11,494 bases of DNA from a virus (lineage: Duplodnaviria; Heunggongvirae; Uroviricota; Caudoviricetes). Below, one piece after another: positions 6,960-7,200 of the stretch. Position 1 is the first letter of the stretch. The number at the start of each line of letters is the position of its first letter. The DNA is taken from the IMG/VR virus record IMGVR_UViG_3300018488_000078, one strand, 5' to 3'. The notes beneath the pieces are model-generated. The model was not told the origin of the DNA, searched no databases, and worked only from the letters and a program-made list of their open reading frames with translations. A program made the position numbers and the translations under genes.

Positions 6960-7200
6960 TGTGCCTCCCTCTACCCCTTCTACCAAGCACTGCAAAAATC
7001 CAGCAATGGCGCACCTTTCAGCATGGTAGAGGGCTTTTAATCCCCTTCTACCAGACCTCTACCTGTCTACCTGGAATTGATAAAATCATGTAGAAGAGGT
7101 AGAGGGTTTTTATTAGCCTTCTACCTGGCCCTCTACCCACTTATCATATTGAATAATATGCATTTATTCCTTTCATGTAGAGGAGGTAGAGGGCTTTTGC
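6960..7200. repeat. Iteron array, putative replication origin
   Basis: At least ten copies of CC(C/T)TCTACC or its complement GGTAGAGGG in both orientations (for example 6967-6975, 6976-6984, 7025-7033, 7044-7052, 7056-7063, 7098-7106, 7117-7125, 7129-7137, 7185-7193), interspersed with AT-rich stretches, immediately downstream of the primase-helicase stop (7207-7209). Confidence 0.75.

Follow-up and report, generated by a model that had tools for sequence, protein, structure and literature searches.

A very probable EcCICFT073-type replication origin in a phage-inducible chromosomal island inserted in a lambdoid portal gene

Introduction

Gram-negative phage-inducible chromosomal islands (PICIs) have their replication origin (ori) after the pri-rep gene (Fillol-Salom et al. 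2018, PMC6092414). For one of these islands, EcCICFT073, it was reported that a fragment composed of pri and ori kept a temperature-sensitive plasmid, with both parts being needed, and that over-expression of AlpA led to uncontrolled replication of the island without any helper (PMC6092414). The origins of the Staphylococcus aureus pathogenicity islands (SaPIs) are found directly 3' of the initiator-helicase gene, where short iterons, six to twelve in number, occur together with an AT-rich stretch that has opposed iterons on each side (PMC9371898). More recently, Tommasini, Mageeney and Williams (2023, PMC10111431) defined the class of helper-embedded PICIs. Here we examine a viral DNA stretch of 11,494 bp (Caudoviricetes; IMG/VR record IMGVR_UViG_3300018488_000078), referred to in its full length as the window, for which an original prediction had placed an iteron origin at 6960-7200, immediately after a primase-helicase gene. 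In the window, a Gram-negative PICI interrupts the portal gene of a lambdoid prophage, which makes it a helper-embedded PICI, and positions 6925-7206 are very probably its vegetative replication origin, of the EcCICFT073 replicon type.

The iteron array

The ORF (open reading frame) map places a gap of 282 bp (6925-7206) between a 584-aa ORF at 7207-8961 and the start of the next ORF at 6924, in a neighbourhood where all substantial genes are carried by the minus strand. The limits of the whole ori region (minus strand) are based on this map, on alignment with EcCICFT073 and with the copy of the island in Escherichia coli Ch1, and on primer mapping of the published ori deletion. Within the gap, an array of iterons with the 9-mer consensus CCYTCTACC spans 6967-7193, in good agreement with the location that had been predicted. 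The exact hexamer TCTACC occurs ten times in the window and all ten copies fall between 6970 and 7190, compared to a mean of 2.6 and a maximum of 7 when the whole window was shuffled 200 times with its dinucleotides preserved; for the looser core TCTAC, 12 of the 16 occurrences in the window are inside the gap. Seven iterons are on the plus strand (9-mers starting at 6967, 6976, 7044, 7055, 7063, 7117 and 7129) and five on the minus strand (7025, 7089, 7098, 7176 and 7185), those at 7089 and 7176 being degenerate copies with the core TCTACA. The predicted minimum of ten copies, in both orientations, is thus reached, and the array lies, as had been claimed, directly after the replication gene, the stop codon of which occupies 7207-7209 while the first iteron ends at 7193. 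The total of twelve TCTAC(C/A) copies is within the six-to-twelve range of PICI/SaPI-type origins, and their clustering is far above chance.

Read in the sense of the gene, the array opens with a minus-strand pair at 7176-7193 (CCCTCTACC at 7185-7193 and TCCTCTACA at 7176-7184, in tandem with a 9-bp period), followed by a 38-bp AT-rich stretch (7138-7175) and by two inverted iterons on the plus strand at 7117-7137 (CCTTCTACC at 7117-7125 and CCCTCTACC at 7129-7137) that are opposed to the first pair. A repeat finder detected here a perfect 10-nt inverted repeat (I7, GCCCTCTACC) that matches 7128-7137 with 7185-7194. Next are two direct iterons at 7089-7106 on the minus strand (CCCTCTACC at 7098-7106 and TCTTCTACA at 7089-7097, again in tandem with a 9-bp period), three inverted ones at 7044-7071 on the plus strand (CCTTCTACC at 7044-7052, ACCTCTACC at 7055-7063 and CTGTCTACC at 7063-7071, with an 8-bp tandem, TCTACCTG), and a single direct iteron on the minus strand at 7025-7033 (CCCTCTACC). 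A 40-nt spacer (6985-7024) separates these from the distal inverted pair on the plus strand at 6967-6984 (CCCTCTACC at 6967-6975 and CCTTCTACC at 6976-6984), which is also a tandem of 9-bp period. On a larger scale, units of about 73-88 bp are repeated three times across the array according to the repeat finder.

The gap has a GC content of 42%, compared to 50% for the window, and this falls to 24% in the stretch at 7138-7175, the presumed DNA-unwinding site, for which no strand is assigned; among all 35-mers of the gap, those richest in AT begin at 7139-7147. The stretch is bracketed by the opposed pairs at 7176-7193 and 7117-7137, which point toward each other, so that at least two iterons are present on either side, as in PICI and SaPI origins. 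It is the same feature as the AT-rich stretch with iterons that is described in the legend of Fig. 2a of the EcCICFT073 study (PMC6092414). The layout that had been claimed for the locus, that of a PICI or SaPI replicon, is therefore the one found: an initiator-helicase gene followed by short opposed iterons around an AT-rich stretch (PMC6092414, PMC9371898). The more general claim of AT-rich spacers applies to this stretch and, as judged by eye, to the short spacers at 7107-7116, 7034-7043 and 7072-7088, and fails for the 40-nt spacer at 6985-7024, which is conserved and has a GC content of about 48%. DnaA boxes with up to one mismatch are present at chance level (21 found, 21.6 expected), with one palindromic near-match at the edge of the gap, and the integration host factor (IHF) consensus does not occur in the ori; therefore there is no sign of a dependence on DnaA or IHF.

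Correspondence with the tested origin of EcCICFT073

The sequence of EcCICFT073 was taken from the CFT073 chromosome (locus L003). Its Pri protein is also 584 aa in length and is identical to that of the window at 569 of 584 positions (97%). The gaps of the window, EcCICFT073 and Ch1 can be aligned with a mean column identity of 77%, and in this alignment the TCTACC cores occupy homologous positions, in register, while the spacers differ. EcCICFT073 and the window have in common the gene order DUF4222-pri-[gap]-small ORF-ssb, a TCTACC core present in 11-12 copies at homologous positions, a conserved 12-mer block, and an AT-rich stretch that adjoins the first iteron pair. The published primers show that the pri-ori insert corresponds to L003 12197 to ~14306 and that the pri-delta-ori insert ends at 13999; here primer rep-2c had to be placed via its 11-nt 5' part, since a one-base indel relative to the record blocked mismatch mapping. 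The 'ori' that had been deleted is thus L003:14000-14306, which covers the iteron gap and extends 23 nt into the next ORF. Taken together, the primer mapping and the gap alignment make the window array the orthologue of an experimentally defined origin, and the cloning experiment that had been proposed along with the original prediction has in effect been performed on this orthologue, in the form of the pri-ori plasmid.

The two islands are not identical in all respects. The iterons have the 5' flank CCY-TCTACC in the window and CTG/CTA-TCTACC in CFT073, and residues 543-546 of the origin-binding domain are AEFS in the window protein and NDFG in that of EcCICFT073. Moreover, EcCICFT073 is located at a chromosomal site, in contrast to the insertion of the window island in a prophage portal gene, and the window island has its own Nu1-like small terminase.

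Conservation of the array

Within IMG/VR, 80 loci encode a Pri protein that is 88-99% identical to that of the window. With other copies added, a gap delimited by two anchors was obtained 74 times, and a total of 84 loci yielded 53 distinct sequences of 241-246 nt; this variation in length means that no reading frame is conserved. The distinct gaps have a median pairwise identity of 65%. Every copy has 10-12 cores, and nine loci that lack the second anchor have 10-11 cores each. Mean column entropy among the 53 distinct gaps is 0.237 in the iteron cores versus 0.602 elsewhere (Mann-Whitney p ~1e-7, a value to be read with the fact that neither columns nor sequences are independent). That the cores have stayed constant while the spacers drifted across 53 variants is taken as a sign of ongoing selection on the cores.

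Twelve conserved runs can be recognized in the gaps. Eight of these are iteron cores, three are short neighbours of cores, and one is a 21-nt block at 7001-7021 (minus strand; CTGAAAGGTGCGCCATTGCTG in gene sense), the only long conserved run outside the iteron cores and one that is conserved to the same degree as the cores across the 53 distinct copies. A 12-mer at the heart of this block, GCGYCATTRCTG, occurs once and at a fixed offset in 74 of 87 loci, and is absent from the Serratia, Morganella and P4 loci discussed below.

The initiator-helicase

The gene that precedes the array (7207-8961, minus strand) encodes the 584-aa replication initiator-helicase 'Pri' or Pri-Rep, as assigned by Pfam, PHROG 864 and a search of the Protein Data Bank (PDB) sequences. 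An N-terminal alpha/beta domain (residues 1-130) is followed by the Pfam domains D5_N (153-282), the superfamily 3 (SF3) helicase domain DUF5906 (316-417, with the Walker A motif GDGGSGKST) and a C-terminal Pox_D5 winged-helix origin-binding domain (487-575). The helicase region matches PDB entry 7ola (E=5.5e-15), which is PriRep5 of SaPI5 (PMC9371898), and residues 488-576 match the origin-binding domain of the P4 alpha protein, for which a structure has been solved (1ka8, E=3.7e-5); over 434 aa the protein is 40% identical to P4 alpha. Pri thus has both the helicase and the C-terminal winged-helix DNA-binding domain of the initiators of PICI/SaPI-type origins, and these two assignments stand.

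The description of the gene as a primase-helicase is supported in its second half; a recognizable primase domain was not found. Zn_Ribbon_Prim and Toprim_3 are both missing from Pri, and likewise from its Serratia relative, while both are detected in P4 alpha and in the Morganella relative. The annotation 'DNA primase family protein' appears to go back to TIGR01613, the NCBIfam model 'phage/plasmid primase, P4 family', which matches residues 229-495, the D5_N/helicase part, with 108.4 bits compared to a cut-off of 108.7. The domain formed by residues 1-130 has a narrow distribution, being represented among 1.8 billion proteins by 79 clusters at 50% identity, and it also occurs fused to DUF927 and RepA-type helicases. 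No PDB sequence was matched by a profile of the domain, and its comparison with the N-terminus of P4 alpha gave a probability of 3.6% and no alignment. AlphaFold gave no usable model of the full protein from the single sequence (pLDDT 35), whereas one built from a 46-sequence alignment was confident over residues 1-130 (mean pLDDT 84). When the strands of the latter are read against the family alignment, the position of the Toprim catalytic Glu would be taken by an invariant Ala (A25), and that of the DxD motif by A79-G80. A primase activity of Pri is therefore unverified and rather doubtful.

Repeat type and origin-binding domain: comparison with P4

The first homologue search retrieved near-identical E. 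coli proteins only, and a scan of one genome per species three loci only. In the more distant relative from Serratia aquatilis (L005:4302-4515) the repeat ACTGTTCAC, and in that from Morganella morganii (L006:3886-4156) the repeat A(G/C)TGTTCAT, is present in both orientations directly after the gene. Their common core, TGTTCAC/T, is also the core of the P4 type-1 repeat TGTTCACC. In the annotated P4 record (L007) ten such repeats, in both orientations, fill crr (4291-4590), which is directly after the alpha gene (4636-6969), and type-1 repeats are also carried by the annotated P4 ori, 4.5 kb away.

The relationships among the DNA-binding domains follow the repeat type and differ from those of the remaining protein. 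Compared with window Pri, the Serratia protein has an identity of 61% in the D5_N/helicase part and only 32% in the origin-binding domain, and the three origin-binding domains of the TGTTCAC type are 44-48% identical to each other versus 29-34% to the domains of the TCTACC type. This grouping is expected if the origin-binding domain reads the repeats, and to judge from the sequences Pri would bind the iterons specifically. On a finer scale, the 5' flank of the iterons (CCY- versus CTG/CTA-) tracks residues 543-546 (AEFS versus NDFG; codons within window positions 7321-7335) with one exception in 84 E. coli loci (loci compared: L003, L004 and L008-L087). This pairing may mark a determinant of specificity, or it may reflect linkage only, which is possible as a sole cause because the gap and the domain adjoin.

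The window replicon resembles that of P4 in having homologous D5_N, SF3 helicase and origin-binding domains and, given that crr is an octamer repeat array in both orientations, in the placement of such an array directly after the initiator gene. It differs in several ways from a P4-type replicon. The alpha protein has the zinc ribbon and Toprim primase domain that Pri lacks; the repeats are TGTTCACC in P4 and TCTACC in the window; a terminator is annotated between alpha and crr, and none was found at window positions 6500-7500; and P4 needs two separated sites, ori and crr, compared to one cluster in the window island. A single cluster per island is also seen in EcCICFT073, where 11 of 13 TCTACC copies lie in the gap, and in the Ch1 copy (10 of 11). 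The origin of the E. coli PICIs looks like an array in the position of crr that serves alone as the origin. Compared with SaPIbov1, SaPI1 and SaPI5 (PMC9371898), the ori position, the iterons, the AT-rich stretch, the C-terminal winged-helix domain of the initiator and the helicase region (through the match to PriRep5) are all alike, although the iteron sequences are unrelated, the hosts of SaPIs are Gram-positive, and SaPI origins are roughly symmetric about the AT-rich stretch, which in the window is flanked by two iterons on one side and ten on the other.

A model for replication and its alternatives

A plausible sequence of events would start with induction and synthesis of the 584-aa initiator-helicase, the C-terminal winged-helix domain of which, homologous to the origin-binding domain of P4 alpha, would bind the twelve CCYTCTACC iterons. 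The 38-bp AT-rich stretch at 7138-7175, bracketed by opposed iterons, would then melt; the SF3 helicase domain would load itself as a hexamer and unwind the DNA, and the satellite single-stranded DNA-binding protein (SSB), encoded two genes downstream, would coat the single strands. Host polymerase would copy the island, with primers that probably come from a host enzyme rather than from Pri. Binding, melting site, self-loading and primer source are what we infer. As each island has one cluster, no second site would be needed. Independent replication, which the original prediction had read from the layout, is well supported as a capacity that the window copy should share with its orthologue; being embedded in a lambdoid helper, the window island is also copied passively.

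Several observations weigh against this assignment. The deletion of the EcCICFT073 ori was described as having 'significantly reduced' colony numbers and was not reported as abolishing them (PMC6092414). For 11capE, the sole induced helper-embedded PICI studied, the whole composite was replicated first, with passive replication noted by the authors, and the attP:attB ratio after excision was near 1 in two of three repeats, meaning weak or absent replication in these, and 1.6-1.9 in the third (PMC10111431). In addition, the two-versus-ten split of the iterons departs from published descriptions of two flanking sets, and Pri has no recognizable primase domain, so the self-sufficiency of the replicon cannot be assumed.

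The 11capE data in particular suggest that the array might be intact but idle, with replication of the island being only passive, from the O/P origin of the lambdoid prophage, while the iterons persist as a conserved relic or serve in copy control. This is improbable when one considers that Pri has its full length and shares 97% identity with an orthologue that works, that the cores remain constant among 53 variants with drifting spacers, and that the third 11capE repeat did give a ratio above 1 (PMC10111431). Perhaps a little less probable still is the notion that the array is a cis-acting replication enhancer comparable to P4 crr, which binds the initiator while synthesis starts elsewhere in the island. 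Its location would fit, as the window array is the positional equivalent of crr and not of the distant P4 ori, but neither EcCICFT073 nor Ch1 has a second cluster, and the replicating pri-ori plasmid contained only the gene and the gap.

It is also conceivable that the repeats are operators that control ORF104, ssb and the capsid genes, or that the gap contains a terminator or codes for an RNA or a small protein. The gap is indeed placed inside a string of co-oriented genes, has one promoter-like site, and as single-stranded DNA folds better than shuffled sequences (z = -2.74). However, such folding is what inverted iterons produce; between 6500 and 7500 no site resembling a terminator was detected and promoter-like sites were at chance level (1 found, 1.1 expected); and gap lengths of 241-246 nt keep no frame. 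An Rfam scan of the whole window (E<=1) returned two microRNA-family matches only, far below threshold, the one in the gap scoring 25.5 bits versus a gathering score of 80. The gap was accordingly rejected as an RNA, and also as a terminator or promoter array, while operators would fail to explain the replication defect that followed deletion of the EcCICFT073 ori (PMC6092414). This group of explanations has hardly any probability left.

The island and its neighbouring genes

Over an aligned 3.3 kb (query 6000-9300) the window is 96.7% identical to E. coli Ch1, where an island of about 11 kb, starting with an integrase gene, has left the portal gene of a lambdoid prophage as two pseudogene pieces, one on each side. 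Part of this 3.3-kb replication region is present in 1765 of 5426 complete genomes, and a Megablast search with it against a phage collection gave no match, which indicates a chromosomal or prophage-embedded island rather than a deposited phage. Gram-negative PICIs run in one direction over about 10-20 kb, in the order int, alpA, Bro zone, replication zone and late zone. The window has the genes for Bro, Icd/YlcI, DUF4222, pri, ssb, capsid, decoration protein and terS; int and alpA are expected beyond its right end, as both are present in the Ch1 copy.

The prophage part of the window (1-2400) contains an S49 head protease gene (261-1715, minus strand) at the left end and a C-terminal fragment of a lambda-family portal gene (1561-2334, minus strand; Phage_portal_2 profile positions 238-354). 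Both abut the island and are co-oriented with it, as in an insertion into a late gene, and GC content is about 60% before the junction (~2335-2400) and about 40% after it. This junction fits the helper-embedded PICI site group B:Phage_portal_2:241. With the published class (PMC10111431) the window shares a co-oriented island inside a lambdoid late gene and the zone scheme of a Bro zone, a replication zone (primase, SSB) and a late zone; the studied example, 11capE, is different in that it is located in a capsid gene and lacks terS, and the ori sequence as such was not analysed in that study.

Downstream of the ori the gene order is small ORF, SSB, lambda E-type capsid, decoration protein, AlpA-family regulator and Nu1-like small terminase. 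The first gene after the ori (6610-6924, minus strand; 104 aa) belongs to PHROG 1231, has relatives annotated as hypothetical proteins, and has its ribosome-binding site, GAGGGGGG, at the ori end. The satellite SSB (6191-6613, minus strand; 140 aa) is supported by Pfam (SSB, E=5.5e-16) and TIGR00621, and is encoded in the same gene order in EcCICFT073. The Nu1-like small terminase (3443-3997, minus strand) matches Nu1 in its C-terminal half only (residues 70-152 versus profile positions 80-162), and adjoining it is the gene for a second AlpA-family helix-turn-helix protein (4187-4570, minus strand). This suggests a small terminase with a swapped DNA-recognition part that would redirect packaging to the satellite. 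Between these two genes, at 4119-4130 (minus strand), the 12-nt cohesive end of lambda, GGGCGGCGACCT, is present as an exact copy, in the place that cosN occupies relative to Nu1 in lambda. It would seem that the satellite has a lambda-type cos site of its own. Near the 3' end of the island, a 54-bp tandem repeat (2778-2901; 2.3 copies, TRF score 164) is made up of units that each start with an exact IHF consensus (AATCAATGGGTTA or AATCAATAGCTTA; 3 found versus 0.48 expected) and contain a short palindrome. It could represent integrase-arm/IHF sites or a packaging-related element.

The genes upstream of pri comprise DUF4222, several small ORFs, an Icd-like/YlcI gene and BRO-N. Here a 356-aa ORF (9867-10937, minus strand) matches known families (repressor/Icd-like) over its last ~60 residues only, and RefSeq relatives have in this place a 65-aa Icd-like gene and, on the opposite strand, a YlcI/YnfO gene that corresponds to window positions 10255-10560 (plus strand); the long ORF is probably not a gene.

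Implications

A tentative proposal, to which we would give somewhat less than even chances, is that the 'primase' of E. coli PICIs is not a primase and that their replicon arose from that of P4 alpha by loss of parts and reduction to a single site. In this scenario the array in the position of crr was kept, its specificity was switched from TGTTCAC to TCTACC, and the zinc ribbon and Toprim domain were replaced by a 130-aa generic alpha/beta domain, at most a degenerate Toprim with an invariant Ala in the position of the catalytic Glu and no DxD. If this were true, priming would depend on host DnaG or on transcription through the ori, and the conserved block at 7001-7021 could be the site of action of an outside priming factor.

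The window origin itself is already known, as it is an allele of the origin that was described and tested in 2018, in an element of a class described in 2023. Its value is mainly one of annotation, in that it marks the origin, and the likely binding sites of the initiator, in a very common E. coli satellite. Work on satellites may nevertheless make use of the specificity groups formed by iterons and origin-binding domains, of the one-site layout compared to the two sites of P4, and of the doubt about the primase.
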